A stretch of 64,000 nt of DNA from a virus. Both the position numbers and the translations under genes were made by a program. This document shows, piece by piece, positions 7,806 to 39,008 of this stretch. Numbering within the stretch: the first letter of the stretch is position 1; each line of letters starts with the position of its first letter. The notes under the pieces are model-generated. The model was not told the origin of the DNA and did no database searches. It saw nothing but the letters and a program-made list of their open reading frames with translations. The stretch is from the UHGV virus genome UHGV-0212524, one strand, 5' to 3'.

Positions 7806-10800
7806 ATGGCTAAAGCGGTAAAGAAAATTCGTTTACACGATTTACGTCCATACACCGGGGATATAGGTGAAGGTGTTTTACTTTTTTCCAAGGATGAGAA
7901 AGATTATAAGTTACCTGTCCGTGAGATCGTTGCAGATATTGACACCGTACGTAATGCGGTGTCTGATGCACAAACAGCAGCAACACAATCACAAGAAGCT
8001 GCAACTCAGGCTACACAAGCAAAGAATTTAGCAGAAACAGCAAAACAACAAACTGACACCGTTGCGGCTACAGTTGCTCAACAAGCGCAAACTGTAACCG
8101 AAAAAGCAACTGAAGTCGGTACAAAACACACTGAAGTGTTAGCCGCGAAAACGGCGGTAGATACCCAGGTTGTGTCCGTTAATGAGAAAGCGCAAGCGGT
8201 AGCGGCAAGCGAGGCCAACGTCACACAAGCGGTGACTACCGTTACGAAGAAAGCAGAAACTGTTGCCACACAAGCCGGTCAAGTCGAACAGTCGCTTACG
8301 GCAGTTAACGAAGCTGTCGCGTCGGTAGAGTCGTCAAAAGCCGCTGTAGAAGCTACAGCAACGCAAGTTACCACAGACAAAGAAACCGCAGAGAATGCGG
8401 CAACGCGTTCTGAGGCAGCGGCTAAGCGTGCAGAAGAAATCGCTGCAAAAGGTAACGTTGATGCAACAACGACCAGTAAAGGTATCGTTAGACTTAATAA
8501 TACCTTAAGCAGTGACTCTGTTACTGAAGCGGCTACGCCGTCAACGGTTAAGCAGTTAAATGAAGATTTGCAGTTAAAAGCAAACCGTCACAACCCAACT
8601 TTTACCGGTGTGGTAAAAGCACCAACACCTGCTTCGGATTCTAACGACACGAGCGTCTCAACGACCGCATGGGTACGGCAAGCGATTGCTGAATTAGTGG
8701 ACTCTTCACCCGAGACGTTAGATACGTTATCAGAAATTGCAGCTGCGTTAGGAAACGATCCTAACTTTGCGACAACGATGACGAACCAACTCGCGGGTAA
8801 ACAGCCGTTAAGTCCGTTACTGACAGCGATTGCCGCAGTCACCACCGCTGCAAACAAACTCCCTTACTTTACCGGTAGTAATCAGGTAGGGTTAGCGGAT
8901 TTCACCTCGACTGCGCGTGATTTGTTAGCGAAAGGGTCGACGGCAGATATCATTAACTTCCTGGGTTTGAAAACCACTGTTGATAAAGCTGCGGGTGCTA
9001 TGCAACGCAGTTCTAACGGTGCCGATATTCCAGATAAAGTCACCTTCGCGAAGAACATCGGGTTGTCAGCAGAGACGTATTTGAAGTTTAATGGGGAAAT
9101 GGCAGTAGATGCGGATATCAACACCTTCGGCCCAGTCGAAGCGTTTATGGGTGTCTGGTCTAAAGCCACGTCTACGAATGCAACAATTGCAAAGAACTTC
9201 CCGGAAGACGATGCAGTTGGTTACTTAGAGGTATTCAAAGCAGGTAACTACAGCGGAAGCCAACGTTTTACCATACGTAACGGTAACGTCTATACTCGTC
9301 GTTTAACAGGAACCTGGAACGGTACTAACGGCCCTTGGTCGCCCTGGAGAATGACAACTACCGCGAACCGTCCGCTCTCCACCACTATTGACCTTAACAC
9401 TTTAGGTGGTGTTGAACACATGGGTCAGTGGCGTAACTCCAGTTCTTCTCTTGCGACGTTCGATCGTCATTATCCCGAAGAAGGTGGTAATGCTCAAGGT
9501 GTATTAGAAGTAATGGAAGGTGGTCTCTACGGACGTATGCAACGTTACACCACTCGTCGTGGTACGATGTATGTCCGTGGGTTGACTGCGACTTGGGATG
9601 CGTCTAATCCACAGTGGGAAGATTGGATTCAAGTTGGGTATCAGGTAGACGGTGCCTACTATAAGGGTAGCTTTAATGACTTAACTAAACCTGGTCGTTT
9701 TAGTGTTACCGGTGAGGCTACTGACGGTCCGTTAACAGACTCTGCTGGCGCAACCTTGTTAGGTGTTTGCGAAGTTACCTTACGCTTAGACGGTTCAGGC
9801 GTTGAACAAAATTATACCACATACGGTACAGGCGCAACTACGAAAGGTCGCAAGTTCCAACGAATTCGTACAGGAAACGCCTGGAGCGAATGGCGAGAGA
9901 TTTTCACATCCTATTCACTCCCGTTGGCTTTAGGGATCGGTGGGGTTGCTGCCAAGGTCGATCCGTTAGACTGGCAAACCTTCGATTTCGTTCCTGGCCA
10001 GATGATAAGTACACCGTTGAATACCATGAAAAACATTCCTGCGGGAATGGATTGGGGTGTTATTGACGGTAACTTGGTCAGTATTCTCGTAGGGGCGTCA
10101 GAGGACACCGGTACTGGTCGGAGTATGTTGGTCTGGCGCGGTACAGTGTCTACTGCTAACTATCGCTTCTTTGCAGTACGTATCGCTGGCGAGAAGGGTA
10201 GCCGTACGATTACGCCACGACAGATGCCTGTGTTGAACGCAGCCCACACTTGGGCAGAGAAACAGACCTTTGCAAAAGGGTTAGCAGGTGAGTTAACCGG
10301 CAATGCTTCAACCGCCACTAAGCTCCAGACTGCGCGTAGAATTGGCGGGGTCGCTTTCGACGGCAGCGGCGACGTTAACCTCCCAGGTGTTAACCAACAA
10401 GGTAATCAAAACACCACAGGTAACGCCGCGACAGCCACTAAACTTCAAACCGCCAGAAATATTAACGGTGTGAAATTCGATGGCTCTGGAGACATCAATA
10501 TCAACACCTTGGTAGGTCGTGGACGGGTTACCGCTCTGACCGGGTCGAACAAGGGTACACCTGGTATCCAGATGTACGAAGTTTACAATAACGGTTATCC
10601 AACCGCCTATGGTAACTTGCTGCACTTAGGTGGTGCTAATGCGCTAGGCGAAGGTGAGTTGTTAATTGGTTGGTCGGGCACGAGTGGTGCACACGCACCC
10701 GTTTATATTCGTAGTCGACGCGATACGGCTGATGCGCCGTGGTCAGATTGGGCACAAGTTTATACTGCCCGTGACAGTATTCCTGGTGTAAATACCACCG

Positions 10801-23931: not shown

Positions 23932-23946
23932 GGAAAGGTGTGGGTA

Positions 23947-24612
23947 ATGGAAAAGCTTCAATATAAACGTTTAGATAATAAGTGGTTTGTATTAACGGAG
24001 GATTACCATTATCCGTTTACGTTACGTGAGATTTATCACGACCACGTACACTTAGACCGTGCGGTTTATTTAACCGGTGTATTACCTGACACGCAACTGT
24101 GGTTAACCGCTCCGAAAGGGTTCGTTACCGATTTAGCGTCAATTCCTGAACACTTACAGGGAATTTTCCATCCTGACGGACCGTGGGCACCTGCGGCCTG
24201 CATTCACGACTTACTCTATCAAAAATGTAACACGGAGCGTAGCTATCCCATGACACCGGGTGGTAACGTTTCGCGTATTATCGATAAAGAGTTCTCTGAC
24301 TTAACATTCCTGCGTATTATGCAGTCGTTGGAAATCTCGCCGTATATCTGCCAAACATTTTATAAAGCCGTGGCGGGGTTCGGTTGGGATGCTTACGTAG
24401 ACCCTAACGCGAAGCCGTCTTATACCACTAACGATTACCGTACGTTAGATTACAATCGAAACTATTTGTTCGTTCGTGAGTTTAAGGAGCCTGCTATTCC
24501 TGACCACGAACGTGTTGATATCACCACAGGTTGTCCCGTTAATGTCAAATACTTGAACATCAAACGGGCTTTTCTGTCTGGGAGGGAAGATGTTTCATCC
24601 AAATCCGAGTAA
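23947..24612 (+). CDS. hypothetical protein, possibly DUF1353-like
   Basis: ATG at 23947 with AGGAAAGG RBS; GFVTDLASIP resembles the DUF1353 signature as recalled. Confidence 0.45.
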   Translation: MEKLQYKRLDNKWFVLTEDYHYPFTLREIYHDHVHLDRAVYLTGVLPDTQLWLTAPKGFVTDLASIPEHLQGIFHPDGPWAPAACIHDLLYQKCNTERSYPMTPGGNVSRIIDKEFSDLTFLRIMQSLEISPYICQTFYKAVAGFGWDAYVDPNAKPSYTTNDYRTLDYNRNYLFVREFKEPAIPDHERVDITTGCPVNVKYLNIKRAFLSGREDVSSKSE

Positions 24613-25843: not shown

Positions 25844-26380
25844 ATGGCTAAAACCTTCAAACTGCAGTTCGTCGAAGCTGTAATTGCTAAAAACCCAGGA
25901 ACCGCTTCTAATCTGACGGTTGATGATGTCGATTTTGGTGCTGTCGAAGCGCACAGCGGTACCGGTGGTCGTAACACCAAAATTACGCTGACCGCCAAGG
26001 CAGAAAGCCAGAACTTCAAAGGCGAGAAAGAATTCCACTACATTCGTCTGGCTTCTCAAGACCTGATCGGTGCCAAAGCTTACGAAAAAGCCGGTAGCCT
26101 CGATCTGGAAAACTCTGCCATTGTAACCAAACTGAACGAAGAAATGGTTACTAAAGGTTATGTCGATGACTATTTCGCTGAAAGCGAACTGACCATTGAG
26201 AAAACTGACGGGGATAGTGGTGCTAAAGTTTACACTGTCAAAGTAAACGATGCACACATTAAATTCCTGGCTGGTACTATTGCCACCTTCACTTATTCCA
26301 ACCCAGCTCCTGAGAAGGTAGCGCTGAGCGGTCTGGAAGGTGAACTTGATGGCTTCACTGCACCGGGTGTCGGTGGCTAA
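25844..26380 (+). CDS. hypothetical protein, LDGFTA paralog family
   Basis: 178 aa; NTKITLTA..NFKGEKEFHYIRL and C-terminal GELDGFTA shared with 26450..26980. Confidence 0.6.
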   Translation: MAKTFKLQFVEAVIAKNPGTASNLTVDDVDFGAVEAHSGTGGRNTKITLTAKAESQNFKGEKEFHYIRLASQDLIGAKAYEKAGSLDLENSAIVTKLNEEMVTKGYVDDYFAESELTIEKTDGDSGAKVYTVKVNDAHIKFLAGTIATFTYSNPAPEKVALSGLEGELDGFTAPGVGG

Positions 26381-26449: not shown

Positions 26450-26980
26450 ATGGCCGCTACTAACCAGATGATGTTGGTCGCGCTTTATAATGCTGCTAAC
26501 GCTGAGCTACCGCATCAGATTACAGATAAAGAAGTGTCCTTTGGTCTCCCTACTGCGCTGGAAGGCGAAAGTAAGAATACCAAAGTTACCATGACCGCAC
26601 TACCGGGTTCTGAGAATTTCAAAGGCGAAATCGAACTGCATTACGATCGTCTGGAGCCGGGTGTTGTAGGACGGATTGAACTAACTGACGATCTGTCTCG
26701 TTGGGTTCAAGAAAATGAACTCCGCGCTTGGTTACAGCTATACATCAACAAAGTAAAACCTGACGACGCTATCGCGCCAGGTGACGTTGTGTACAGCACC
26801 GAAGACCAGAAAGACGAACATGAAAACGTCACTCTGCGTACCGTGACATGCACCGTTACTGAACAGAACCTCCGTTATAAACCGGGTGTAATGGCAACTT
26901 TCGTAATTACACCGAAGGTAGTCGATAATCGTATTGACCTGGCCACCACCGACGGTGAATTGGACGGTTTTACTGCTTAA
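26450..26980 (+). CDS. hypothetical protein, LDGFTA paralog family
   Basis: 176 aa; NTKVTMTA..NFKGEIELHYDRL and C-terminal DGELDGFTA. Confidence 0.6.
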   Translation: MAATNQMMLVALYNAANAELPHQITDKEVSFGLPTALEGESKNTKVTMTALPGSENFKGEIELHYDRLEPGVVGRIELTDDLSRWVQENELRAWLQLYINKVKPDDAIAPGDVVYSTEDQKDEHENVTLRTVTCTVTEQNLRYKPGVMATFVITPKVVDNRIDLATTDGELDGFTA

Positions 26981-27019
26981 CCGCTAAGTCAACTACTATA
27001 ACAAAAAATAATAAGTTTA

Positions 27020-27050
27020 CCTACCTCCTTTACGGAGGTAGGTATTTTTT
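27020..27050. terminator. bidirectional rho-independent terminator
   Basis: CCTACCTCC..GGAGGTAGG hairpin flanked by A-run and T-run; between convergent operons. Confidence 0.75.
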
Positions 27051-27723
27051 ATTCTAATCCCATTTCCAGCGCAAGTGCACGGATCGTGTCGTAGTCACGC
27101 TGTTCGGCGTACTGACGAATTTCACTTTTCTGGGCAGACATCGCGTTGTGTAGCTGTTGGTCACGTTTCACAATAGCCGCCATTAACGCTTTACATTGCT
27201 CCAGCGTAAACGGTTCTATACGTGTATTCGACGTGTCCAGCCAATAATCCGGTGCAGTTTCAGACTGGATATATTGACCCAGCATCTGACGAGAGGTTTC
27301 ATCCGCTTGGAAATGATGGCCGTCAACTTCGATATAACCGTGACGCTGGTCTTCGTATCGGTGTTCAATTTCCAACATGATTTTCTGGATATCTAAATAG
27401 ATATAGCGAGACGTCGAGCGCATATTCGAACGAATCTCGTCCAGGTTAATCTCCAGAACGTCAGTAATGAATTCTTTTGCTTTGTTCAGTGTAAACTTCG
27501 CCTCAATAGGAGACATTTCGTAAGTTTGCATCTGAGCTAAAGCTTCTTCATCACTCATCCCTTCAATCAACTTATAGTGCAGTAATGCACAGAACCCCGT
27601 ACGACCACGGTCTTCGTTACCTACACGTTCCATGTAGTTACCGTGGCGGTCAATTGGCAGATCGTGCGCGAAATAACGCGCCCGAATCTCTTCTTTCGTT
27701 AAGCTTTTGTTAGAAGCAGACAT
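27049..27723 (-). CDS. hypothetical protein, last gene of the radical-SAM/Cys-peptide operon
   Basis: 224 aa; overlaps upstream gene by 25 nt; bidirectional terminator follows. Confidence 0.6.
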   Translation of the reverse strand: MSASNKSLTKEEIRARYFAHDLPIDRHGNYMERVGNEDRGRTGFCALLHYKLIEGMSDEEALAQMQTYEMSPIEAKFTLNKAKEFITDVLEINLDEIRSNMRSTSRYIYLDIQKIMLEIEHRYEDQRHGYIEVDGHHFQADETSRQMLGQYIQSETAPDYWLDTSNTRIEPFTLEQCKALMAAIVKRDQQLHNAMSAQKSEIRQYAEQRDYDTIRALALEMGLE

Positions 27724-28265
27724 TCTTCTTCTCCAACCATACCTAATTCTTGCAGCAAGCCAAAATCAACCAACTGGAAGGTTTCAGAGAGATCGTTTGA
27801 CCACACCACGTTTGCAATGTCGCGTTCTTCATCCGTTAACTGTGGTAACACATTTTCGTTGAACGTCTGATGCTCTACGTAATAAGCATCGTAGATAGAC
27901 GTAGAACGCAAGCAACGGATTGGCAGACGCGGGAAAGACACCGCTAATGCAGCAATAGATGCGCTACTCGGATTCTCCGCAGAATAACGAAGCAATTCGA
28001 TCTTGTGGCGTGGGTAATCCAGTACGCGTTGTTCGAAACCCGGATTACGTTTTTCGATTTCCACAACGGACTCATGGCCTGTCTCTGTACAGTAAACGGG
28101 AATCATCACGTTTAGCCCGTACTTAATCAACAGAGGTTTAATCTCATCTGTAAAGTCTTCACCAGGGATAATGGCGTGAACGTTATAGAGTTTGTGTTTG
28201 CGCAGAAAACGCTCAACCAGGTGGAGTTTACGCTTCGTAAAATTGTGGATCAGAATTGATTTCAT
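27699..28265 (-). CDS. hypothetical protein
   Basis: Start at internal ATG 28265 (GAGG RBS); overlaps the radical SAM gene 3' end. Confidence 0.55.
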   Translation of the reverse strand: MKSILIHNFTKRKLHLVERFLRKHKLYNVHAIIPGEDFTDEIKPLLIKYGLNVMIPVYCTETGHESVVEIEKRNPGFEQRVLDYPRHKIELLRYSAENPSSASIAALAVSFPRLPIRCLRSTSIYDAYYVEHQTFNENVLPQLTDEERDIANVVWSNDLSETFQLVDFGLLQELGMVGEEECLLLTKA

Positions 28266-29562
28266 TATTTGCCTCAGTAGGTTGTGCATTTAACGCACGT
28301 TTAGCTTGCTCACGCTCACGCGTACATTTCGGACAGTAACAAACAGACGAATCGTGCAGTGACGATGCGTGGACGGTGCCTGTACGTTGACGCCAGTATT
28401 CTGCCGCCATCAGTTTTGCGGTCGTCCAACCACATTGACGTCGTTCAGCGTGGTACGCCTTACGGTCTTCCAGTGTCCCTTCACCGTTTTCGTAGGAAGC
28501 AGCTGCACAGCTCCCACAACCGTGTTTCATCGGACAACCTAAGCACGTTTCAGGATAGTTGGTGTATTGCGTCTGAATCTCTTCCAGCAGTTTCCCGCCG
28601 TCTAAGCTAACAAACTCACGACCGACTAACTCAAACACCGCAGAGCGTGACGTTACCGTTGACATGAATCGGTTACAACCATACACCTTACGGTCAAAAC
28701 CTAAACAAGTCATAAACGTCAACGTCCCACAGAACGGACGTAAACGTTCAGGGTTATAACGGTGCGTGTCGTCGTACAGCAGTTTATCACGCCAATCTGG
28801 GTCCCAAATCTGACGGAAATCCAGACCTTCAGGAATGATGTGGGACAACACGTTACGTGGATTGGTGTGCAGCCCTTTCTCAATCCAATAATCCATCACC
28901 TCGATCATCTGCAACGCAATATCCGTTGCCATGCTCCGTGGAAGGATATCTTCGTACGTCACGTTACCCGAAATCGTACCACCACCCGCAATATCGATTA
29001 ACGACTTCATACTCGCCGCGTAATGCGGGAGGGTTTCGGTTGTAAAGGTTGCCTTGATACCCAGTTCAGCAATACCCACTTCTTTTAAGTAGTTATAGCC
29101 ACGAACAGCGGCTTCGTAAGAACCCTGACGCGTCGTGGTAAAGATACGATAACGGTCATGGACTTCTGGCAGCCCGTCGATAGACACACCGATGGAGAGT
29201 TTGTCTTTCCAACGCTCGACGATCTCACGGTTTAACGGACGGTCTAACAACGTCCCGTTCGTGGAGATACTGAACATATACGGTCGATTATGCTCCTTAC
29301 ACAACTGTTCTGCGGTTTCAAACGCCGCTAACAGCAGTTTCGGTTGCATAAAAGGTTCGCCGCCGATGATATCAATAATGACGTCGATGTTCGGAATATC
29401 TTTATCACGCTCAAAACAGGCGTGTAAGAAATCCACGATATCCGCCGCTTTGTTATTACGCGGATACTTACGTTCGTAACAATACTCACAGTCTAAGTTA
29501 CAAGACAGGTTCGTTACCACCTGGTAAGTACGTTGTGAACGTGGTGCTTCATTATTGCTCAT
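28228..29562 (-). CDS. radical SAM enzyme with C-terminal SPASM-like Cys cluster
   Basis: 444 aa; CNLDCEYC (Cx3Cx2C) near N-terminus, GGEP motif, C-terminal CLGCPMKHGCGSC plus further Cys. Confidence 0.8.
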   Translation of the reverse strand: MSNNEAPRSQRTYQVVTNLSCNLDCEYCYERKYPRNNKAADIVDFLHACFERDKDIPNIDVIIDIIGGEPFMQPKLLLAAFETAEQLCKEHNRPYMFSISTNGTLLDRPLNREIVERWKDKLSIGVSIDGLPEVHDRYRIFTTTRQGSYEAAVRGYNYLKEVGIAELGIKATFTTETLPHYAASMKSLIDIAGGGTISGNVTYEDILPRSMATDIALQMIEVMDYWIEKGLHTNPRNVLSHIIPEGLDFRQIWDPDWRDKLLYDDTHRYNPERLRPFCGTLTFMTCLGFDRKVYGCNRFMSTVTSRSAVFELVGREFVSLDGGKLLEEIQTQYTNYPETCLGCPMKHGCGSCAAASYENGEGTLEDRKAYHAERRQCGWTTAKLMAAEYWRQRTGTVHASSLHDSSVCYCPKCTREREQAKRALNAQPTEANNEINSDPQFYEA

Positions 29563-30469
29563 CTTTGCTTATCCTTTTACGCTCTGCATAAATCACGCGT
29601 TTAATGTACTCGTAAGCACCTACCCCGATAGAGCAAGCAAGCTGATTGCACCCACCGTTTAAGATAGCCGGTGCATTCTGAAGCTGATGTTCTGTTCCAT
29701 CTGCGTTCAAATACAACTCTTCGCTACAGACATTACACTCGTTTTCGAAAATCTTGCTGACAGACACGCCGCACGATTCTCCGGTTTGGACGTTCAGCCG
29801 TTCCATATTCTCCTGAATCTTTAAATAACCATAAACGAAGTTCATGATGTGATCGGGAGACAACGGTTTTGGCATTTGGGCATCAAACATCAGAGAAAAC
29901 GCACGGGGACGATAGTGGTACATCGCACGATGTAAATCCACAATATCTTCATACCAGCGCTTATCGGCTAACTGGTCACGCGTAATCACAGCCCAGGTTT
30001 GGAAGTTATCGAGTTCGTATAACGCTTCCAGTGCTTCGTGGCTATCCTCTTCAATAAAGCGCATAAAAGGGCGCTCAGAACGTTTGTAGCCATCAATTGA
30101 TACAAACACATGCTCAAAGTCTTTTAGCAGCGTAAGATGCGATTTACGCAGTTTTAAGCCGTTGGTATACAAGTGATGCTCAAGGTGCGGATGAGACACT
30201 TTCAGTTCGTTAACGAAATCCTCAATCTTACGTTGGACGAGTAGCGGTTCACCACCCGTCCAATGTATTTCCTTAATAGCTGGATTCTCTTGTAGTAATT
30301 CCAGGATACGTTCGCGTTGAAAAGCACGAGACGAATCTTCACGATTCATGTAGTAGGCTCCACCGCAGAAACTACAGTCTAGGTTACACTTAGACGTCGT
30401 AACTACGGACAATATAGTGGGTTTATCGTACAACTTCGTCGAGATCCTGGATTCCACATTGTCTATCAT
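29552..30469 (-). CDS. radical SAM enzyme (second, shorter; possible twitch/partial SPASM)
   Basis: 305 aa; CNLDCSFC (Cx3Cx2C), TGGEPLL, C-terminal Cys (C..CNVC..GGCNQLAC); 11-nt overlap with next gene. Confidence 0.75.
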   Translation of the reverse strand: MIDNVESRISTKLYDKPTILSVVTTSKCNLDCSFCGGAYYMNREDSSRAFQRERILELLQENPAIKEIHWTGGEPLLVQRKIEDFVNELKVSHPHLEHHLYTNGLKLRKSHLTLLKDFEHVFVSIDGYKRSERPFMRFIEEDSHEALEALYELDNFQTWAVITRDQLADKRWYEDIVDLHRAMYHYRPRAFSLMFDAQMPKPLSPDHIMNFVYGYLKIQENMERLNVQTGESCGVSVSKIFENECNVCSEELYLNADGTEHQLQNAPAILNGGCNQLACSIGVGAYEYIKRVIYAERKRISKDEQ

Positions 30470-30489
30470 TGCAGGTTGCTCCAGTATTT

Positions 30490-31377
30490 TTAAATATAAT
30501 CGATGGCGAATAAAGGATCTTCGTCGAAGTTAACACCGGGTTTTAAAATCAGTGGCGAATTATACGCTTCCAGTAAACGGTTAAGTTCGTTGTAGCGGCT
30601 ATTCATCCGTTTGAGGTCTTCTAAGGTCACAACACGGTCAAGCATCGGCTTAACTGCTTCGGCTTCTTCGTCAGTCAGTTTAACTTTCGACAGCAAGAAG
30701 CTGACGAGTTTGGAAATGTCCGCTTCGGTAGCTGGGCTCTGACCAAAACGTACCTGAACCATATGCTGCATCCACGGTTTACGAATGCGTTTCGTAATCA
30801 CGTGTTCGTCAGTGATGGCTTTCCAAACCGAACGTTCACGAATCCATTCGAACTTATAGCTGTACGCCATTAAGTCGGCCAGATGCGTAATTCCGAGTTC
30901 TTGATAGCCTTCAATATCGATATACGGTTCCGTATCAAAATACTCTTTGGTATCTTTTTCAACCAACGCGTAATAGTTAGGGAACGCACCCAGGTAGTCT
31001 GGACTCCACCAACGACGGGCCATTGGTTTAGCATCGAGTTCTTCAAACGGTGTGAACATAAGTTCTAAGTCAACTGTATTATTTAACACACCGTCGCTAA
31101 AGAAATATTTACCGTCGATAAGTTTACCGCGTTGTGAGTTGTCACCGGTAAAGACAACGATGCTTTCGCCAACCATATCACGAATTTTGAACGTATTCTC
31201 AACCGTAAAGTTGTCACGATTAGCGATATGACGACCACGCACTTTCGGCCATTCCCCAGGAATCATGGCAATTAAGCGTACATCATCAGCAAGATGGTGA
31301 CGTACCGAATCAGGGGAAGAGATGTGAAGTGGATGATTGAACGTTGTCGTATATGCAAGATGTAGATCGTTCTTCAT
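30490..31377 (-). CDS. hypothetical protein between Cys-rich peptide genes and radical SAM enzymes
   Basis: 295 aa; GGAG RBS; no recognisable motif. Confidence 0.6.
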   Translation of the reverse strand: MKNDLHLAYTTTFNHPLHISSPDSVRHHLADDVRLIAMIPGEWPKVRGRHIANRDNFTVENTFKIRDMVGESIVVFTGDNSQRGKLIDGKYFFSDGVLNNTVDLELMFTPFEELDAKPMARRWWSPDYLGAFPNYYALVEKDTKEYFDTEPYIDIEGYQELGITHLADLMAYSYKFEWIRERSVWKAITDEHVITKRIRKPWMQHMVQVRFGQSPATEADISKLVSFLLSKVKLTDEEAEAVKPMLDRVVTLEDLKRMNSRYNELNRLLEAYNSPLILKPGVNFDEDPLFAIDYI

Positions 31378-31498
31378 TGATTACTCCAATTATTTCACGG
31401 GTAGTATCTTTAGCGTCTAGCTCAGACCCAACATAAACAGCAGCTTTGTTATCAAGGATGGTTTCGAAGGGCTTGGTATGGAACCACCACCAGAAGAC

Positions 31499-31708
31499 TT
31501 ACCTGCCTCCCCCTGCACCTTTACTACAGCTACCACTGCACGCCCAGCTACAACTCCCATTACAGTTATAGTGAGTTAACGGTAATCCTGCCAAGTTATT
31601 CGTTGAGGACACCGTACCCTGATTAGCAATATAGTTATTCGCATCTGTGGTTTTAATGTAGCCTTCAACCTGACCGATTCTGTCTCGAATATTTTTGAGG
31701 GAAATCAC
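31499..31708 (-). CDS. Cys-rich precursor-like peptide C (leader + short CxxxC core)
   Basis: 69 aa; GTG start with AGGAGGTGA RBS; leader MISLKNIRDRIGQVEG...; core YNCNGSCSWACSGSCSKGAGGGR. Confidence 0.7.
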   Translation of the reverse strand: MISLKNIRDRIGQVEGYIKTTDANNYIANQGTVSSTNNLAGLPLTHYNCNGSCSWACSGSCSKGAGGGR

Positions 31709-31718
31709 TTCTCACCTC

Positions 31719-32114
31719 CTATCGTCCTGTGCACGACGAGCAGCCACCGGTACAGCTACTGGAGCACGATGCTGTACAGCCGCCCGTACAAGTGCCCGAG
31801 CACGCATTAGCGCACCCACCCGAACAACTCCCCGAACACCCTGAACAGCTACTTGAACACCCTGACGTACAGTTTGCAGAGCATGAAGAACCGCAACCAC
31901 CAGACGCGTTCCCTGTACAGCCACCAGAGCAACTCGAGCAGGTAAAGGAACACGTGCCCGCACAGTCATAATGCGCACGATTCCGACCACCGAACAGGTC
32001 CGCGTTATTCGTGGCCTTATTGCGGATGTAGTTCTGTACACCTGTGGTGTTTTTCAGCGCGATACTATCGACGTTATTAAGACGTCTTACTAATTCAGCT
32101 AATCCAACCGCCAT
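31719..32114 (-). CDS. Cys-rich precursor-like peptide B (leader + long CxxxC-repeat core)
   Basis: 131 aa; AGGGGGA RBS; ~55-aa leader then ~75 aa of C/S/G/T/A/N with ~20 Cys mostly spaced Cx3C; ends GR. Confidence 0.7.
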   Translation of the reverse strand: MAVGLAELVRRLNNVDSIALKNTTGVQNYIRNKATNNADLFGGRNRAHYDCAGTCSFTCSSCSGGCTGNASGGCGSSCSANCTSGCSSSCSGCSGSCSGGCANACSGTCTGGCTASCSSSCTGGCSSCTGR

Positions 32115-32123
32115 TTCTTCCCC

Positions 32124-32516
32124 CTATCGACCAGAGCAACCGCCGGAGCAAGCACCCGAACAGTTATGCGAACAACGCCCAGTACAACTTCCAGTACAGG
32201 TACTTGTACAACTGCTAGAACAAGCCCCCGAGCAGCCAGAGCATCCCGAACAGTTGCCCCCACAGGACGAAGAGCAGCTACCCACGCACGACGCTGAACA
32301 GTTTCCTGAACAGCTCGAGCAACCGTGAGTACATCCGTTAGAACATGTCCACGAACACGCTCCTCCGCAGTCTAAACGCGAAGGCGTCCAACCGGAAAAC
32401 GAATCTGCCGCGTTATGCGCTTTCGATGCGACCTGCGCATTGACACGAGGGCCGGTAGCGACTGTATTTTCTACTGTGGTTAACCGATCGCGCATTTGTT
32501 TAACACTAATCGCCAT
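32124..32516 (-). CDS. Cys-rich precursor-like peptide A (leader + long CxxxC-repeat core)
   Basis: 130 aa; AAGGA RBS; leader MAISVKQMRDRLTTVEN...; core DCGGACSWTCSNGCTHGC...; ends GR. Confidence 0.7.
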   Translation of the reverse strand: MAISVKQMRDRLTTVENTVATGPRVNAQVASKAHNAADSFSGWTPSRLDCGGACSWTCSNGCTHGCSSCSGNCSASCVGSCSSSCGGNCSGCSGCSGACSSSCTSTCTGSCTGRCSHNCSGACSGGCSGR

Positions 32517-32581: not shown

Positions 32582-33787
32582 TTATTTCGTACCCGCTTCC
32601 GCCTGTACGTCATCACGAGACGTCAGGTTAGCGTTAACGTGTACTGGGGCCTGAACCACACCACCGTATCTCTTGTGGAGATAACCGGTGTGCGGGTTAT
32701 CTGCCGCGATGTGGTTTTGTAGGTTCTGGTTCGCTTGACTGATTGCGTTCGTGTTATTGTTAACTTGCTGTTTAAGCGCATCCAGGTTCTGTTGTACCTG
32801 ATCGATTTTCTGATCGGTTTCTTGACCCTGTTGCTCTAACGCGGCAACACGCTGAATAACCTGATTCAGTTTTGTGTTTAAATCGTTGATGCTCTTTTGC
32901 AGTTGTAACACTAACGAGTTCAGGTTCGCTAACGCTAAGGCCATTTTCTGGTAGTTTTGAGCAACCACGTTAAGTTGGTCGTTCCACGCTTCCAGAGAGT
33001 TGACAACAGCGTCAATACGCTTACCTAAAGCTTCGTCCGCTTTCTTCAGTGCATTGATTTCCGTAATCGTTGCGTCGATGGCAGACTGGACGTCACGAAT
33101 AAGCGCACGGATTTCAGTTTCTGTTAACCCGTTAACCTGATGAATATCAAGATGGTGAACGTTACCGGTTGCGTTGATGTGTGCATTTAAAGCGTCTAAG
33201 AAGTCATTTTTCAGGCTTTCTAAAATCGCTTTAATGTTCTCTAACTGTACCGCGTCACCGGAACTGATCGCATCTTTAATACCCGCCAATACGGTAATGA
33301 TATATTCAAAACCGTAGATGTCACCCACGTCTTTATACGTCGGTGCAGATGGGAATGTATCCGGTACGTTACGCAGGTCTTTAAACGCAATCGTACGGTT
33401 ATCGAGGTTTAATTCAGCAATCGCCTGTTCGATAGCCACAATGTTCGCAGACTGTGGACCACCAACGACCTGCGCAGATACCGTAATATCTGTTGGAATC
33501 GCTGTGTTAGTGACCACCACCGCCATAACAATCTCGCGGTTTTTAGTCAGCTTTTCATAAGTCGGGTGTGCAAAAATCAACTCATAATCGGTACCACGTT
33601 CGTAGGTTGCATCCGGTCGGTTAGCAACACGTAAACGGAACGTGTCCGCAAAGAACGGGCCGTCAGGAAAAGCAAAAGCACGGTTTACTTTACCTGTACC
33701 TAACGTAATCTGACGCTCTACAGCGTTAGACGTTAGCGAGCCCGTTAAATCTAAAGGATATTGATAAACAATGGAGGCCATGGCCAC
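32582..33787 (-). CDS. tail fibre-like protein with coiled-coil C-terminal half
   Basis: 401 aa; N-terminal FPDGPFF..RLRV....TDYEL module shared with three upstream giants; Q/N/L-rich coiled coil. Confidence 0.7.
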   Translation of the reverse strand: MAMASIVYQYPLDLTGSLTSNAVERQITLGTGKVNRAFAFPDGPFFADTFRLRVANRPDATYERGTDYELIFAHPTYEKLTKNREIVMAVVVTNTAIPTDITVSAQVVGGPQSANIVAIEQAIAELNLDNRTIAFKDLRNVPDTFPSAPTYKDVGDIYGFEYIITVLAGIKDAISSGDAVQLENIKAILESLKNDFLDALNAHINATGNVHHLDIHQVNGLTETEIRALIRDVQSAIDATITEINALKKADEALGKRIDAVVNSLEAWNDQLNVVAQNYQKMALALANLNSLVLQLQKSINDLNTKLNQVIQRVAALEQQGQETDQKIDQVQQNLDALKQQVNNNTNAISQANQNLQNHIAADNPHTGYLHKRYGGVVQAPVHVNANLTSRDDVQAEAGTK

Positions 33788-33821: not shown

Positions 33822-36800
33822 TTAAGATGTAAACATAAGATTGAACTGGAGTTTGTCGATATCGCGAGTTTCCGCCGGATTCACGGCATCGTACGCGGTC
33901 GCTACGTAAACGGTTAGCGTACCGTTAGCGTAAGACGATTTCACCGGTGGGTTAGTTCCGGTCTGACCATCTCGGACAATGAGCGTAGGTTCACTCGGGA
34001 GATTGTCAAACTGACCCTTGACCGCTTTATACACCAAACCAGATTGCGCAGCCAGTTCAGTGTCCGTAAAGACAAAGAACGGTGTGTCGATATCAGCCTG
34101 CTTGACGATGGTGTTCGATTCAACGTCAATCAACTGTACCGCCCCAAACTTCGTACGATAACTTTCATACTCGTTCTTCGGAATAACGAACGTGACATGA
34201 ACACGAACCTCCTCGGCAGGTTTAAACCCACTGTGCTCTTTTTCCAGGTACTGGTTGGCGGTTAACGTTACCGTTTGTTCAGTCATCGTACCACCGGCCT
34301 GGTTTAATGCATACCGAGCTTCAACAATACCGGTTGGTGCAGCAAGTCGTAGTTTCAGAGCACGATTCGCCGTTCCTGGATTACCTGGCACCTGAACACG
34401 CAAACTCAATGCTAAGTAAGCATTCGTTCCGGTAGTCGGTTTCGTATACGCACCAATCCATTTCATGTTCGCAGACGCTGCCTGCATGTTCTCAGAAGCA
34501 GTGGCTGTCGCAATGTTAGCAGCTACCGCTTTCTGCCAGAATTGGTCAGCGCAGTTCTCATACGCTACCCTGGCCACGCTCTTATAACCCGAATACGTTT
34601 CCTGAATTGGTAACTTAGGACGCGTCGTAATGCCGGACAGTGAACCCCATTTCTGACCGTCAACATACCCTTCACCTTTCGACGCAGACGCCGTAGGTGC
34701 TTTAACGGGCTTGTTAACCAGTGTTAATAGAGGACCCGTCTTTCTGTCAAACGCTGCTGCTACATCGTGTTGGTCGATAATTGCTGCGTGGTCTTCCAGT
34801 TCTTTCACACGACCCAAACGTTTTACTTTGTCGATACTGATACCAGTAATACGGCTGGAATCGGTGGTTACTGTCCCAACGAACAGTCTTGTTGAGGTAT
34901 CGGCTAACTGCTCCAAACCGATGCGGTATTGCGCGGTAGAACCCGACACCTCAGCGTGCACGTAGAACGTCTGGTTAGCGTGATTGGATGGGAACTCACT
35001 GCTTAAATCCACAGACCACGTTGGGAGTGTGTAACTGCTGCTACCGAAATCTAATTTGACTTCTTCTGTCAAATACAGAATCCAACCTTCCGCTGTTTCC
35101 ACACCGGCAATAATAACCGCCTGACCTCCGGTTGAGAACGTCGTGTCGTTAACGAACTCTGCGGCTGTATACGCGTTACCTGAACAGAAAACACGGTCAG
35201 CTTTAGAGTAAATCAACGCCATCTTGTCCCAATCACCGGCACCCATATAGCACCCAGATTCTGGTCTATGTTCAGGGGCCATCTGCCGTAACTGTGATTT
35301 ACCTGCAACGCGTGTCCAACCTGAACCAGGGTCGAAGGTATATTTAGCAGCGTAGCCCAGGGCGTTTAAGTCCCCGATATTTCGGGTAGTTAACGTATAA
35401 GGTAACCAGATACCGAAGTTAGTTCCATCCGCAGATGCAAAAATAGGCTGCCCCACGCGCCTCGTTTTACCTCCCGCTCCCCCATTTAGTGACTGATAAC
35501 TTAAACCATAATCGAGGTCTAAGAACCAGTCCACCAACTTAAAGGTGGCTGAGTTGAAACGTAAGTAGCCGTTCTCTTTAGATGGGCTCACCATGAAGTA
35601 ATAGATGTCAAGAATTCGACGTCCGTTACTTGAGGTTTTCATGCACGAAACTTGCAACAAGTCAAATTCGCACACGGTGTTGATACCCAACATCCAAAGA
35701 GCAAACAATGCATTACCGGTTTGATGTGCAGCACTAATACGTTCGTTCGCGTAACCATTTGCTTGACCAGATGGCGCACCGTCAACGATCATCCGAATCA
35801 TTTTCTGCCGATCGGCTTCTTCTAGCGTTAAGCGTTCGGAAGACAATGCGAAGTTACCGTAGATGTTACGATACGGGAACGTTTCTGCTTTGGTCAAATA
35901 CCAGCCGTTCAACTGTCCATGACGCTCCTCAGGGATCATGCACGCAGCCATACAGCTAAGCTGCTCGTAAAGCGTTGGATCGACTTCACGACGGTTGTTG
36001 TTCGGACCGTACCCACTATACCCAGAAACATCGTAAGGTTTGTTCGGATCAACTTCCACTTCGATCGTGTAACGGTTACGAGGGTTCGATAACCAGACCT
36101 TATTCGAACCACCAATCCCTACTGGATAAGACAAACCGATGGTGTAAATGGAGCCACGGCCTTTATCCCAGGTAAACGTTCCTTCGCCCGAGGTGTTGTT
36201 TGGGTTATCGTAACGCAGATAATCGAAAAGCTCTCTGCCTTGTGTACTCTTAATAGAAACATTAGGCATTTGGTCCGCATCGGCAATTTGCCAACAGGAA
36301 AGCATCATTCCTGTACCGTTGGGTTTAGCATACGTCGCGAAACAACGGTTGTTTGCCTGGCCACCACCCCACTTACGATTGGTTCCTACAGTTGAACCAT
36401 CTGCGAACGAGAGTGTAGTAGTAGCATCAGCCTTGATGGGGAAGCGTTCGCGGCCTTCTAACGTAACCTTGCCCGTCAACGTATCGATTGTAAAACTTGT
36501 TGCCCATTGAAGGAAATTAATCGTCGTACCGTCGGCCGCTGCAAACCACACGGTAGGCATATGGTTCACACGAATCACGCTATCGCGCACAGCACACGCG
36601 TGGTTACATTCTGGACCGTGAACAAAGTTACGCCCGATCGTCCATTTAGCACGACCCTCCGGTGTGAGATATGTAAAGAATTGACCCGTTTGCGACTCTT
36701 CGGTTTTCTGACCAATACGCAAGCAGAGGTTATCTCCGAATTGTCCCATCTCGCCGGTTAGAGTTACACGTTCAAATTCTAACGTAGTGTTAGTAGACAA

Positions 36801-39008
36801 ATCGGCCTTACGTAGACGCCAAGCTGCTACGGCGTAAGCGGAGTTATTTACCGTTGAACGGAGAAGATAAACGTAGTCCTCAACCAACACGACATCGTCA
36901 GCTTCCGGCCACGGGTTCCAGGTTTGTTCCACAGTACCACTGGGGTTGCCGTTACGGTACACGGGCATCGTAACGCGACATACCACCGTGTGCTTAGTGT
37001 GGTCCATCGAGCCATTAAACAGCACCAAATAACGGTTATTGTCAGAACCCAGGCAAATAATCGCTTCCTGGCCACCGATCAATATCGCTATTAGGGTCAC
37101 CCCAGGATATTTACTCATCCCGGCAGGGTGATATTTCACTGAGGTCTGCTGCGGATTTACAAACGCGTTTGACGTGTCAATGTCAGCATAGCCGTAATAA
37201 ATAGCTTCCGTACCCGGCACGCCGTTAGAACCGTTACGGAGCGAATAAACCTTACCCTGCTGATACCCAACAACCCCTTTCTGGTAGGACTGGTTTTTGG
37301 TATAGCCTGCGTAGTTACCTAACGCTGGGATAGGTAAGAAGTTCTTGTTACCGAATTTCGCTCCACCTACCGTCCACGCCGGTAAGATGGTATTCAGTTT
37401 ATCAGAGACCTTCTTAATCTCTTTTGCGAACAACCAGCCTTGACGCGACGTGACAGCTTTATCGTTAGTGGTGTCAATTGCATCCCAGAGCTGTAAGATA
37501 CCGTCAACCGTTGCACTACCAATCGGGACGTTATCCAAGTCAGCAGTGGTGTGGGTGTGCGTTTTCAAACTCTTGTTTTTCAACACGTTCGTTAACGCTT
37601 TTGTCACAGGCTTATCACTCGGTATGGTGTTATCCATCTTATCGATACCGAAATCGGTTTTCGTTAAGGTTAACACCATATTGTCGCCTGTTTTAACAAA
37701 CCCTTTACCGTTAACGGTATAGTCATCGTCAACGTACAAGTCCAAGCGGTCTTTTAATTCTGTTACAGCTTTCTGGGAGATAGCAGTACCTAACGCCGCA
37801 GACGTAGAGATATTCGTAATCGAGAACAACCCATAAACTGATTCGGACGCCGTGGGAATATTCGCGTTTAACGTAACCGGGTTAGTCTGTTTTGCGGTAC
37901 CGTACGGTTTTACAGTGTCTGACGCTTTGAAATACGCGTTTGCTTCAAGCAACGTTACTGACGTCAGATACATGTTCACCATTTCTGGTGTAACCAGGTA
38001 CACGGAGTTATAAACTGGCGCTAATACGTCCTGTTCCGACCCCGAGTGAACCCAAAGCGTATTCAGACCCGCACTGAATTCAACCGCTAAACCCGATTCG
38101 TTGTTGTCCTGGTCTGCTTTAATCACCAACGGTTGTGGCGAGGTAATTAACCACTTATCACCACGAATACTGATGATGTGGCCACCTGACGTTTTAAACG
38201 TTAATTCATTACCGTTCGTGGTACCCCATCGACCGTAAACGGTGCCGAGGGCTTCACCCATTAACTGGTCAACGTCCGATTGCTCAATACCCGCTGAACC
38301 CATCAGCGTAGCCAACTCGTCAATCGTCAACCCAAACGCTTTTGTAGCGTCAACAGCACGACCTAATACCGGGAGAGCAGCAATGTCATCAGTGGTATAA
38401 TGATGCGCGTTAGGGTTACGGTGATGCTGGTATAACTCTTCGTCGAAAACCTTTTTACCGTTCTCGTAAATCAAGTTAGTGACTTCACTGAACGCAGCAT
38501 CTAATTCCGTAGAACGTTTGATGATTTTCTTGCGAATGTCTTCTAACGCCTTAACAACCTCATCCCTCAGAATCGCTTCTTCTAAGTTAGCAGGCGGGTC
38601 GATAGGCTGAATAACCGGCGCATACGCCATTAGTTCAGACCAGTCCACGTTACGTGGGTCTTTCAGGTCAGTACGAACTAAGAACTTCCCGATTTCAGAT
38701 TGCGGTACACGGTATTGACGTGCTACCCCTAAAATCTCATATTCGATTTCTGTTGCAGTAAGCAACATAAACCCGCCGTAAATCTGATCTTGTTCAGCTT
38801 CTGCGAGTTCTTTAAAGTAATAGCCTAAATAGTAGTCCAACCCCTCAATCAGAGTACGACGTCCGTTAGGCGCGGTATCGTCGGCTACTGTGAGTTTTAA
38901 TCCGATACGATAAAAAGGTCCTTCAGGCGGAATGACCACGTTAAATCGGTTAGGGTACGTCGCTGTGCTTAGCGTACCGTTAAACTGCGCCGCGTCTTCT
39001 CTCGGCAT
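33822..39008 (-). CDS. giant tail fibre/spike-like structural protein (1728 aa)
   Basis: N-terminal IPPEGPFY..LKLTV....GLDYYL module; AGGAG RBS. Confidence 0.75.
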   Translation of the reverse strand: MPREDAAQFNGTLSTATYPNRFNVVIPPEGPFYRIGLKLTVADDTAPNGRRTLIEGLDYYLGYYFKELAEAEQDQIYGGFMLLTATEIEYEILGVARQYRVPQSEIGKFLVRTDLKDPRNVDWSELMAYAPVIQPIDPPANLEEAILRDEVVKALEDIRKKIIKRSTELDAAFSEVTNLIYENGKKVFDEELYQHHRNPNAHHYTTDDIAALPVLGRAVDATKAFGLTIDELATLMGSAGIEQSDVDQLMGEALGTVYGRWGTTNGNELTFKTSGGHIISIRGDKWLITSPQPLVIKADQDNNESGLAVEFSAGLNTLWVHSGSEQDVLAPVYNSVYLVTPEMVNMYLTSVTLLEANAYFKASDTVKPYGTAKQTNPVTLNANIPTASESVYGLFSITNISTSAALGTAISQKAVTELKDRLDLYVDDDYTVNGKGFVKTGDNMVLTLTKTDFGIDKMDNTIPSDKPVTKALTNVLKNKSLKTHTHTTADLDNVPIGSATVDGILQLWDAIDTTNDKAVTSRQGWLFAKEIKKVSDKLNTILPAWTVGGAKFGNKNFLPIPALGNYAGYTKNQSYQKGVVGYQQGKVYSLRNGSNGVPGTEAIYYGYADIDTSNAFVNPQQTSVKYHPAGMSKYPGVTLIAILIGGQEAIICLGSDNNRYLVLFNGSMDHTKHTVVCRVTMPVYRNGNPSGTVEQTWNPWPEADDVVLVEDYVYLLRSTVNNSAYAVAAWRLRKADLSTNTTLEFERVTLTGEMGQFGDNLCLRIGQKTEESQTGQFFTYLTPEGRAKWTIGRNFVHGPECNHACAVRDSVIRVNHMPTVWFAAADGTTINFLQWATSFTIDTLTGKVTLEGRERFPIKADATTTLSFADGSTVGTNRKWGGGQANNRCFATYAKPNGTGMMLSCWQIADADQMPNVSIKSTQGRELFDYLRYDNPNNTSGEGTFTWDKGRGSIYTIGLSYPVGIGGSNKVWLSNPRNRYTIEVEVDPNKPYDVSGYSGYGPNNNRREVDPTLYEQLSCMAACMIPEERHGQLNGWYLTKAETFPYRNIYGNFALSSERLTLEEADRQKMIRMIVDGAPSGQANGYANERISAAHQTGNALFALWMLGINTVCEFDLLQVSCMKTSSNGRRILDIYYFMVSPSKENGYLRFNSATFKLVDWFLDLDYGLSYQSLNGGAGGKTRRVGQPIFASADGTNFGIWLPYTLTTRNIGDLNALGYAAKYTFDPGSGWTRVAGKSQLRQMAPEHRPESGCYMGAGDWDKMALIYSKADRVFCSGNAYTAAEFVNDTTFSTGGQAVIIAGVETAEGWILYLTEEVKLDFGSSSYTLPTWSVDLSSEFPSNHANQTFYVHAEVSGSTAQYRIGLEQLADTSTRLFVGTVTTDSSRITGISIDKVKRLGRVKELEDHAAIIDQHDVAAAFDRKTGPLLTLVNKPVKAPTASASKGEGYVDGQKWGSLSGITTRPKLPIQETYSGYKSVARVAYENCADQFWQKAVAANIATATASENMQAASANMKWIGAYTKPTTGTNAYLALSLRVQVPGNPGTANRALKLRLAAPTGIVEARYALNQAGGTMTEQTVTLTANQYLEKEHSGFKPAEEVRVHVTFVIPKNEYESYRTKFGAVQLIDVESNTIVKQADIDTPFFVFTDTELAAQSGLVYKAVKGQFDNLPSEPTLIVRDGQTGTNPPVKSSYANGTLTVYVATAYDAVNPAETRDIDKLQFNLMFTS

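Follow-up and report, generated by a model that had tools for sequence, protein, structure and literature searches.

The DNA considered here is a 64,000-nucleotide (nt) stretch of the virus genome UHGV-0212524, hereafter called the window. A cassette of eight open reading frames (ORFs) lies on its minus strand, and all eight were found where a sequence-only reading of this DNA had placed them. The first three genes encode short cysteine-rich proteins, designated P1, P2 and P3 in their order downstream of a gene for a 401-amino acid (aa) protein: P1 (32124..32516; 130 aa) and its paralog P2 (31719..32114; 131 aa, 20 Cys) contain repeats of the type Cys-X3 (CXXX), and P3 (31499..31708; 69 aa, 4 Cys) is a short paralog with a GTG start codon. 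As had been claimed, each of them has its own ribosome-binding site (RBS), which is purine-rich and located 5-8 nt upstream. They are followed in the same orientation by genes encoding an accessory protein of 295 aa that is kept with the module (30490..31377), a small radical S-adenosylmethionine (SAM) enzyme of 305 aa (29552..30469) with the motifs CNLDCSFC and TGGEPL, a radical SAM/SPASM enzyme of 444 aa (28228..29562) with the motifs CNLDCEYC and IGGEPF and a C-terminal Cys cluster, a protein of 196 aa (27699..28289) and, as the final gene of the unit, a DUF4376 protein of 224 aa (27049..27723). The genes of P1-P3 are situated 1.9-3.0 kb upstream of the 444-aa enzyme gene on the same strand.

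The cassette region shows approximately 73% DNA identity to SPN3US-like (Seoulvirus) jumbo phages of Salmonella, E. coli, Erwinia and Proteus, in which the cassette is syntenic. Its genes have already been deposited, poorly annotated, in about 50 jumbo-phage genomes, and the N-terminal 50 aa of P2 are kept in 55 jumbo-phage records. The sequence-only reading had located the cassette among tail genes, which agrees with the identity of its neighbours. Directly upstream of P1 lies the gene of the 401-aa coiled-coil tail protein (32582..33787, minus strand; phrog_2163), which is 77% identical to SPN3US gp167, and the co-directional run begins with the gene of a 1728-aa baseplate/fibre protein (33822..39008, minus strand) that is syntenic with the SPN3US gp168 gene. 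Proteins gp167-171 and gp173 of SPN3US were found in tailed particles and were absent from tailless ones, and gp168 was described as a baseplate/fibre protein (PMC5105663). The 401-aa protein may be regarded as a candidate attachment partner for P1-P3.

P1 consists of an N-terminal region of approximately 49 aa, which includes the junction 'NAADSFSGWTPSRLD', and an 81-aa tract with 21 Cys; the corresponding junction motifs of P2 and P3 are 'NNADLFGGRNRAHYDCAGTCSFTC' and 'THYNCNGSCSWAC', respectively. A single helix (residues 5-21) is weakly predicted in the N-terminal region of P1. The Cys residues of the tracts are mostly spaced by four (17 of 20 intervals in P1, 15 of 19 in P2), a few being spaced by three, and are separated by Ser, Gly, Thr, Ala and Asn; the tracts of P1 and P2 contain neither Asp nor Glu. 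All three proteins were assigned to phrog_6085 (E 1.6e-36, 1.6e-42 and 1.6e-25 for P1, P2 and P3, respectively). Against the target model TIGR04114, named 'Cys-rich repeat-containing protein', P1 and P2 scored 19.5 and 17.6 bits, just under the cutoff of 20, and no match was obtained for P3.

Because the composition of a Cys repeat opens ORFs in several frames, the frame under selection was tested for P1, using the window, SPN3US and Erwinia phage pEa_SNUABM_29. In the called frame there are 54-58 synonymous versus 13-30 non-synonymous codon changes, compared with 5-11 synonymous versus 57-84 non-synonymous changes in the other two frames. The differences fall mostly at the third codon position (60-75 of 82-119), and all Cys residues are conserved, every Cys codon being kept across approximately 27% DNA divergence. 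The view that the small ORFs are unexpressed composition artefacts of a GC-rich repeat could draw on the several overlapping ORFs in other frames and on the fact that depositors annotated the wrong frame or the antisense strand. Its probability is nevertheless negligible, as synonymous changes dominate in the called frame only, the Cys codons are kept, RBSs are present and the genes occur in 55 phage records. Purifying selection acts on the three Cys-rich ORFs, which are real genes.

The radical SAM identity proposed for the two enzymes was confirmed by searches with PF04055 (cutoff 29.5 bits), in which the 305-aa protein scored 55.8 bits and the 444-aa protein 53.3 bits. The assignment of the latter to the SPASM enzymes received mixed support: the Pfam SPASM model gave no match, but the SPASM cysteines (C278, C286, C296, C340, C343, C349, C352 and C377) are invariant or nearly so in the family alignment of 18 sequences, as are C21, C25 and C28 of the radical SAM motif. 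The best NCBIfam matches of the 444-aa enzyme are TIGR04115, 'radical SAM peptide maturase, CXXX-repeat target family' (124.8 bits, cutoff 350), and PapB (NF047865; 110.8 bits, cutoff 340), and it scored 74.4 bits against HxsB (cutoff 370). When a profile of 18 homologs was compared with solved structures, the closest was CteB (5WGG; E 4.9e-36, CteB residues 104-430) and the second-closest the anaerobic sulfatase-maturating enzyme (anSME; E 1.4e-17). The radical SAM motif of the 444-aa enzyme begins at residue 21, and the alignment with CteB begins at residue 104 of that protein, which indicates that the N-terminal recognition element of CteB (RRE, the RiPP recognition element; RiPPs are peptides synthesised on ribosomes and modified after translation) is missing here. 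These sequence relationships support the placement of the 444-aa enzyme in the RiPP-type thioether-maturase branch of the SPASM radical SAM enzymes. The enzymology of the earlier reading, a SPASM radical SAM maturase, holds in this respect, with TIGR04115, PapB and CteB as the best matches, all below curated cutoffs.

The 305-aa enzyme yielded generic NCBIfam matches only, with HxsC among the best (47.2 bits, cutoff 267.9); it lacks a full SPASM domain and has two further invariant Cys residues, C248 and C274. A confident structure was predicted for the 295-aa protein (mean predicted local distance difference test score, pLDDT, 86.9), and the model has no recognisable fold.

Distant homologs of the 444-aa enzyme (32-39% identity) are encoded in bacterial genomes, and both of the two examples examined lie inside prophage tail modules. 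In the P2-like prophage of Campylobacter pinnipediorum (locus L005), the order of genes is Baseplate_J, Tail_P2_I, Phage_tail_fib protein, 250-aa protein, SPASM enzyme, small radical SAM enzyme, DUF1353 protein and sheath, and the 384-aa tail fibre ends in ...MGCNGCSGSCSGSCSSGCTACSGCSGSCSGK.... In the lambda-like prophage of Deferribacter abyssi (L004), a lambda-like GpJ gene precedes that of a 302-aa fibre; after the fibre gene, a 250-aa protein is encoded first, then the small radical SAM enzyme and finally its SPASM counterpart. The fibre has HxH-type repeats (IHNHDARYY, HIHDDRYY, HTHDDRYF), followed by ...NADQLGGQAGSYYRCSDCSWTCSSSCTGSC... and a CXXX tract of approximately 100 residues. Homology links the 295-aa protein of the window to each of the two 250-aa proteins (E 6e-12 and 0.002), and the small radical SAM enzymes of the window and the prophages are homologous to one another (E 1e-13). 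The matches of a profile of the 295-aa family are confined to L004, L005/6/12, L011, L013 and L014 and always stand beside the enzymes.

Four parts, i.e. a CXXX-ended protein, an accessory protein of 250-295 aa, a small radical SAM enzyme (an ortholog of the 305-aa protein) and a SPASM radical SAM enzyme, occur together in L004, L005 and the viral contigs L013 and L014, and the set is present without the small enzyme in L011. The order of the genes differs between lineages, and the conservation of a four-part module despite this variation is good evidence that its parts work together. Several of the CXXX-ended proteins are recognisable as fibres: that of L005 matches Phage_tail_fib and tail-fibre PHROGs (E 1e-55), that of L011 tail-fibre PHROGs (2e-40) and that of L014 tail-fibre or minor-tail PHROGs (approximately 1e-10). 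In the clade of the window, tract-bearing fibre-type proteins measure 255-482 aa. The neighbouring genes, where checked, encode Baseplate_J, Tail_P2_I, sheath, Phage_tail_fib, GpJ and Sipho_Gp37 proteins and belong to at least four unrelated tail types.

A wider survey comprised 80 viral loci, the best of those with a gene for a relative of the 444-aa enzyme. A co-directional CXXX-tract ORF ending no more than 3 kb upstream of the enzyme gene was present in 76 of them, and tract ORFs numbered 91 in the 225 kb directly upstream of the enzymes as against 5 in the other 951 kb. A scan of bacterial genomes, which is a rough negative control and no census, found a tract at 7 of 80 loci; its search pattern caught mostly distant generic SPASM enzymes. 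Four enzymes encoded on viral contigs (L038, L016, L025 and L075) pass the TIGR04115 cutoff with 386-496 bits, and the L038 enzyme adjoins a Sipho_Gp37-type tail gene. The enzyme of L017, at 307.8 bits, stays under that cutoff and is located in a P2-like baseplate module, and the L017 protein scores 24.2 on TIGR04114. On this evidence, the curated TIGR04115 family itself consists of phage-borne, tail-associated enzymes. The clade of the window is a sister group, with about equal scores against TIGR04115 and PapB.

Enzyme and peptides of the window both score highest against TIGR04115/TIGR04114, in which a SPASM enzyme is likewise combined with a Cys-X3-repeat protein beside it. As in the window, a co-directional CXXX ORF lies upstream of those enzymes that exceed the TIGR04115 cutoff, and the neighbours checked in L038 form a tail module. 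The window clade differs from TIGR04115-type loci in its small radical SAM enzyme and its 250-295-aa accessory protein, both absent there, in a distinctive junction, 'YY[DR]C..CSW[TS]C', and in scores that stay below the TIGR04115/TIGR04114 cutoffs. TIGR04117 and TIGR04118 are related NCBIfam target families. Judging from these sequence comparisons, the cassette is a divergent member of the CXXX/radical SAM-SPASM system (TIGR04114/TIGR04115), which databases carry as a candidate RiPP pathway and which the survey shows to be a module of the phage adsorption apparatus.

The peptide profile was also searched exhaustively against 1.84 billion representative proteins, which gave 300 matches. Among the best 148 of these, from which sizes were taken, 23 proteins have at most 140 aa and 19 exceed 700 aa, the longest having 1,803 aa; in 105 of the 136 that bear a tract, no more than 20 residues separate its end from the C-terminus. 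In proteins P0175-P0180 (1582-1803 aa) the last 565-647 residues form a single unbroken CXXX tract. Proteins of the L038 type have a fibre-like layout: an N-terminal domain and a tract of approximately 240 residues are followed by a conserved linker (VEDPTVDLIANG), behind which stands a C-terminal domain of one of two or more alternative kinds.

Some further observations were made on proteins of this kind. Two different types of C-terminal domain stand behind the same linker, VEDPTVDLIANG, in different contigs. In several gut-phage loci (e.g. L041 850-2700, compared with L038 5961-7580) the CXXX protein stops just past the tract and another frame continues from the linker into a C-terminal domain; an indel from assembly, a programmed frameshift or exchangeable tips could account for this. 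The CXXX-tract protein P0172 (177 aa) has the N-terminus 'RREFFKKAAKGALPILSAVAMISSPIFVRAAE', which looks like a twin-arginine signal peptide and would point to a secreted, possibly non-phage version of the tract. The Pfam family PF27846 is recorded in the database on P0167, P0169, P0170 and P0172 and may be a recent curated model of the CXXX repeat.

The sequence-only reading had interpreted the N-terminal portions of the Cys-rich proteins, approximately 50 residues, as cleavable leaders of free peptides. A hidden Markov model of the N-terminal parts of the jumbo-phage peptides was compared with 23,467 ORF segments from non-jumbo loci, and its three best matches were the shaft-to-tract junctions of the fibres in L014, L004 and L013 (E 1.1e-4, 1.7e-4 and 0.037, respectively). 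Moreover, phrog_6085 aligns to the C-terminal ends of fibres from profile position 17-35 on, i.e. inside the presumed leader. Two proteins of 494 and 559 aa retrieved in the exhaustive search end in ...NADSLNGKPQSYYDCNGTCSWTC... and ...TLGGQPADFYSCGGTCAWSC..., and the shared junction consensus is N-A-x-x-[LF]-x-G...[HY]-Y-[DN]-C-x-x-x-C-S-[WF]-[TA]-C. Only the junction and the tract are common to P1-P3 and the fibres of L004, L013 and L014. This homology argues that the N-terminal regions of P1-P3 are the last piece of a fibre shaft and not a RiPP-specific leader. P1-P3 appear best explained as short stand-alone versions of the C-terminal end of a fibre, each with a short helix, the junction and a Cys-X3 tract.

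If the peptides were instead classical RiPPs, their leaders of about 50 aa would be recognised by the maturases and cut off, and the cross-linked cores would be freed at lysis, serving, for example, as a bacteriocin, a signal, or an anti-defence or metal-binding factor, and the tail operon would merely provide late expression. The size of the peptides (69-131 aa), their division into a non-repetitive N-terminal and a Cys-rich C-terminal part, the RiPP maturase families found as best matches of the 444-aa enzyme and the NCBIfam name of TIGR04118, 'rSAM-modified Cys-rich RiPP', are all compatible with this possibility, as is the fact that the peptides have never been seen in SPN3US virions, although they were undetectable with the annotation used. 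Such a function is unlikely, however, since the supposed leader is homologous to a junction inside genuine fibre proteins, and the tracts are fused to fibre-type proteins of 255-482 aa in this clade and occur in proteins of up to 1,803 aa family-wide. The module also recurs in tail modules of at least four unrelated tail types, and in P1 the core is more conserved than the N-terminal part (non-synonymous codons between the window and SPN3US: 13 of 81 and 17 of 49, respectively). In addition, no RRE, peptidase or exporter was found in the cassette when its eight proteins were searched against Pfam, NCBIfam and PHROGs, and the 196-aa protein also against PDB sequences. With the tract forming the C-terminus of fibres elsewhere and most tract proteins being far longer than RiPP precursors, the interpretation as leader peptides of a free RiPP is probably wrong.

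Small ORFs starting '...RYDCSCGCSWSC', with a weak match to the junction motif of the window clade (E approximately 0.1), were noticed several kb downstream of TIGR04115-type modules (L041 10511-10639, L052 16993-17121, L039 15607-15735, L034 16851-17012 and L036 9564-9725).

The orthologs of the two enzymes and three accessory proteins in SPN3US, gp161-165, were not detected in virions (PMC5105663), which fits non-structural maturation factors. Among them, gp161 corresponds to the 224-aa DUF4376 protein and gp162 to the 196-aa protein. The annotation of gp164 starts at an internal Met and thereby loses the radical SAM motif CNLDCSFC; the full ORF has 305 aa. The SPN3US records lack annotations for P1 and P3, and their 'gp166' (10456-10791) is a wrong frame of P2. 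A 68-aa ortholog of P3 is encoded both in SPN3US and in Erwinia phage pEa_SNUABM_29; the record of the latter lists it as a hypothetical protein but has antisense ORFs called over P1 and P2. The misannotated spans are 10238-11267 and 8392-9327 in SPN3US (L001/L003) and 9412-10434 in the Erwinia phage (L002). With P1-P3 absent or in the wrong frame in the SPN3US annotation, the published virion proteomics could not have detected these peptides. The N-terminal part of SPN3US P1 has the predicted tryptic peptides VQIVEANMATGPR, IDAQVASK, AHNAADR and FGGWTK.

It was also considered that the CXXX proteins, or the cassette as a whole, act in assembly only, as a transient scaffold or chaperone for the folding or trimerisation of gp167/gp168 that stays outside the finished virion; in a possible variant, the C-terminal tract is cleaved after assembly like an intramolecular chaperone. 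The non-virion status of gp161-165 is in line with this, and so are the DUF4376 protein at the end of the cassette, related to tail and tail-fibre families, and a nearby DUF1353 'tail assembly chaperone', a family that also follows the enzyme pair in the Campylobacter prophage. In other phages, however, fibre and tract form one covalent chain, and L038-type proteins carry the tract between an N-terminal and a C-terminal domain. A permanent structural element fits this arrangement better than a chaperone does, and we regard a role limited to assembly as distinctly unlikely.

The gene content of the cassette, the selection on its ORFs, the family ties of its enzymes, the four-part module, its position in tail modules and the fusion of tracts to fibres elsewhere are shown by the sequences compared. 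The interpretation that we consider probable is that P1-P3 provide a tail-fibre-associated Cys-repeat domain that is covalently cross-linked, most plausibly by thioethers, in the reducing cytoplasm; both this chemistry and the location in the virion are what we infer from the data above. Disulfides cannot form in the reducing cytoplasm, the site of phage particle assembly, so thioethers made by radical enzymes would supply covalent cross-links during assembly. CteB and PapB form thioethers from the Cys sulfur to side-chain carbons, and the repeat substrate of PapB receives several small, local rings.

By analogy with these enzymes, the 444-aa SPASM enzyme would abstract hydrogen atoms from the tract protein late in infection, and the Cys sulfurs would be joined to carbons of neighbouring residues, creating thioether bridges within or between chains. 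As the tract is devoid of Asp and Glu, the acceptors would be Ser, Thr, Gly, Ala or Asn. The most likely outcome would be a CXXX tract stapled into a ladder of thioether rings, or chains linked to each other. The 305-aa radical SAM enzyme would assist, and the 295-aa accessory protein may present the substrate in place of an RRE. A floppy tract would in this way become a compact, covalently stapled element that resists protease and reductant. The matured P1-P3 would stay full length and would join or cap the baseplate-peripheral fibres formed by gp167/gp168-like proteins. The type of bond, the roles of the accessory proteins and the incorporation of P1-P3 into the virion are likewise things that we infer.

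The presence of the repeat-plus-enzyme module at the fibre ends of many unrelated phages suggests a previously undescribed way to cross-link the host-binding apparatus. In its broadest form, the proposal is that the CXXX tract is an unrecognised building block of fibres or tips, a thioether-stapled rod or knob, and that radical SAM enzymes cross-link virion structural proteins in many unrelated tailed phages (gut, Campylobacter and jumbo enterobacterial phages); we would give this generalisation slightly less than an even chance.

The tract could alternatively bind metal or an iron-sulfur cluster, as a metallothionein-like Cys array at the fibre tip, the radical SAM enzymes performing another modification (e.g. 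of Cys to formylglycine) or none on the tract. A tract of 81 residues in which 20-21 Cys are separated by small side chains would suit such an array. The L004 fibre has histidine repeats upstream of its tract, and H-x-H motifs are metal-binding in some phage fibre tips. The second-closest solved structure, anSME, is also relevant, as this enzyme oxidises Cys or Ser to formylglycine. On the other hand, the tract is almost always found beside a SPASM enzyme, and the characterised enzymes closest to the latter, CteB and PapB, use Cys as a thioether donor; moreover, a plain metal site would need neither dedicated radical SAM enzymes nor an accessory protein. Metal binding by the tract is thus very unlikely. 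None of these competing explanations accounts for the repeated fusion of tract and fibre as simply as a cross-linked structural element does.

Several points weigh against a cross-linked fibre element. P1-P3 contain no Pfam domain, and hence no recognisable fibre anchor or shaft, phrog_6085 is their only PHROG match, and their length is in the size range of RiPP precursors, which typically have fewer than about 150 aa. The AlphaFold2 model of P1 has a pLDDT of 38, with a disordered tract and no usable structure; predicted disorder beyond the short N-terminal helix fits a domain that needs modification or partners to become ordered. The published virion proteomics relied on an annotation without the correct ORFs of P1-P3. 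The 444-aa enzyme scores far under the curated cutoffs of both TIGR04115 and PapB, and its similarity to anSME means that the modification may not be cross-linking. A tract without Asp and Glu makes the Cys-Asp link of the PapB type impossible. When the very long CXXX proteins were compared with PHROGs, no tail domain was detected, and the N-terminal region of approximately 1000 residues in P0175 matched no PHROG, so that the virion role of these proteins is an assumption. Finally, the literature searched contained no biochemical paper on any member of the CXXX/SPASM system.

The ranthipeptide/SCIFF maturases PapB (freyrasin) and CteB (thermocellin) belong to the same SPASM branch as the 444-aa enzyme, and ring formation by PapB in a repeat substrate is the nearest mechanistic model for a CXXX ladder. 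They differ in that the window enzyme scores below the PapB cutoff of 340, its presumed substrate lacks the Cys-X3-Asp/Glu motifs that would supply an acceptor carboxylate and the RRE of CteB, approximately 100 residues, is missing. Their substrates are peptides of approximately 45 aa, whereas CXXX substrates reach hundreds of residues and are part of structural proteins. The His-Xaa-Ser system (HxsA, HxsB and HxsC) likewise combines a short-period repeat with a SPASM radical SAM enzyme and a smaller non-SPASM partner, but its repeat is HXS and not CXXX, and the window enzymes score far below its cutoffs (370 and 267.9); we know of no link between the Hxs system and phage tails. Among phage adhesins, gp38 of T2 and S16 is a small, separate tip protein whose N-terminal part binds the distal end of the T-even-type long tail fibre and whose glycine-rich repetitive domain faces the host. 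The analogy with P1-P3 is one of function only; Cys repeats are absent from gp38, which does not depend on radical SAM enzymes.

In the literature searched, no paper was found on TIGR04114/TIGR04115, on Cys-repeat tail fibres or on radical SAM maturation of virion proteins, and a 2026 review of jumbo phages mentions none of these subjects. The earlier statement that such a cassette is undescribed from any phage structural module stands as far as the searchable literature goes. The enzymology itself is of a known kind, and the target family already exists as database models.

If the structural interpretation is true, the TIGR04114/TIGR04115 'RiPP' families are tail-fibre maturation systems and not natural-product pathways, and genome-mining counts of such clusters as natural-product pathways would be affected. 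RiPP-type radical chemistry would then be known for the first time from the maturation of a viral structural protein, and virions would be seen to be built on a new principle, which could explain the robustness of fibres in gut and anaerobic habitats. Because of annotation errors (Cys-rich genes missing or called in the wrong frame, and one radical SAM gene truncated), the substrates have stayed out of published proteomics. Among 50,697 deposited phage records, the enzyme family is confined to the SPN3US-like clade and two faecal phages that are uncultured, so the SPN3US-like phages, as the only cultured carriers, offer an experimental entry point; amber-mutant genetics and virion proteomics are available for SPN3US.

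Outside the phage records, assemblies of Salmonella enterica (serovar Chester) encode a protein identical to the 444-aa enzyme on contigs that reach 226 kb, and close relatives occur on contigs of approximately 240 kb in many Salmonella and E. coli assemblies. These are jumbo-phage genomes deposited as parts of bacterial assemblies, through a carrier state or contamination.

The 196-aa protein is restricted to the jumbo-phage lineage (phrog_7988, aligned from residue 9), and searches of Pfam, NCBIfam and PDB sequences gave no match. Its first ATG results in a 62-nt overlap with the upstream gene, so the true start may be internal. The DUF4376 protein (PF14301, 43.3 bits; phrog_8169) has weaker matches to the tail/tail-fibre PHROGs 2837 and 1807, and the DUF4376 domain is common to phage tail and tail-fibre protein families. 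The bidirectional terminator proposed for the end of the unit was partly borne out: a hairpin with an 11-bp stem does exist between the convergent gene sets (27018..27044), but a T-run follows on the plus strand only. The 121-nt spacer after P3, tested for an attenuator of the RiPP-operon type, folds no better than shuffled sequence (z 0.64). Counts of sigma-70 promoters and internal terminators in the cassette were not above those in shuffles; this says little, because phages of the phiKZ group use their own RNA polymerases.

Plus-strand genes beyond the cassette were also inspected. A 224-aa DUF1353 protein (23938-24612; PF07087, 54.7 bits) is encoded 2.4 kb beyond it; the SPN3US ortholog has the RefSeq name 'tail assembly chaperone', and in the Campylobacter prophage the gene immediately after the radical SAM pair likewise codes for a DUF1353 protein (L005 8068-8433). 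This protein may be a further accessory of the module. Tandem DUF7941 paralogs of 178 and 176 aa (25844-26380 and 26450-26980) occupy the position of a single gene in SPN3US, gp160, whose abundant product occurs in tailless particles; at this position the Erwinia relative has three ORFs of about that length.

A match to the CXXX search pattern at 8358-8447 on the minus strand lies antisense to a fibre gene and has no ORF of its own, and was dismissed as due to chance. The fibre gene in question (7806-12272, plus strand) encodes a 1488-aa fibre-like protein with tandem 'GNAATATKLQTAR.IGGV.FDGSGD' repeats. The same repeat is present in the CXXX-ended fibre of L011, and the C-terminal end of the 1488-aa protein seems, at the sequence level, to resemble an intramolecular-chaperone domain.

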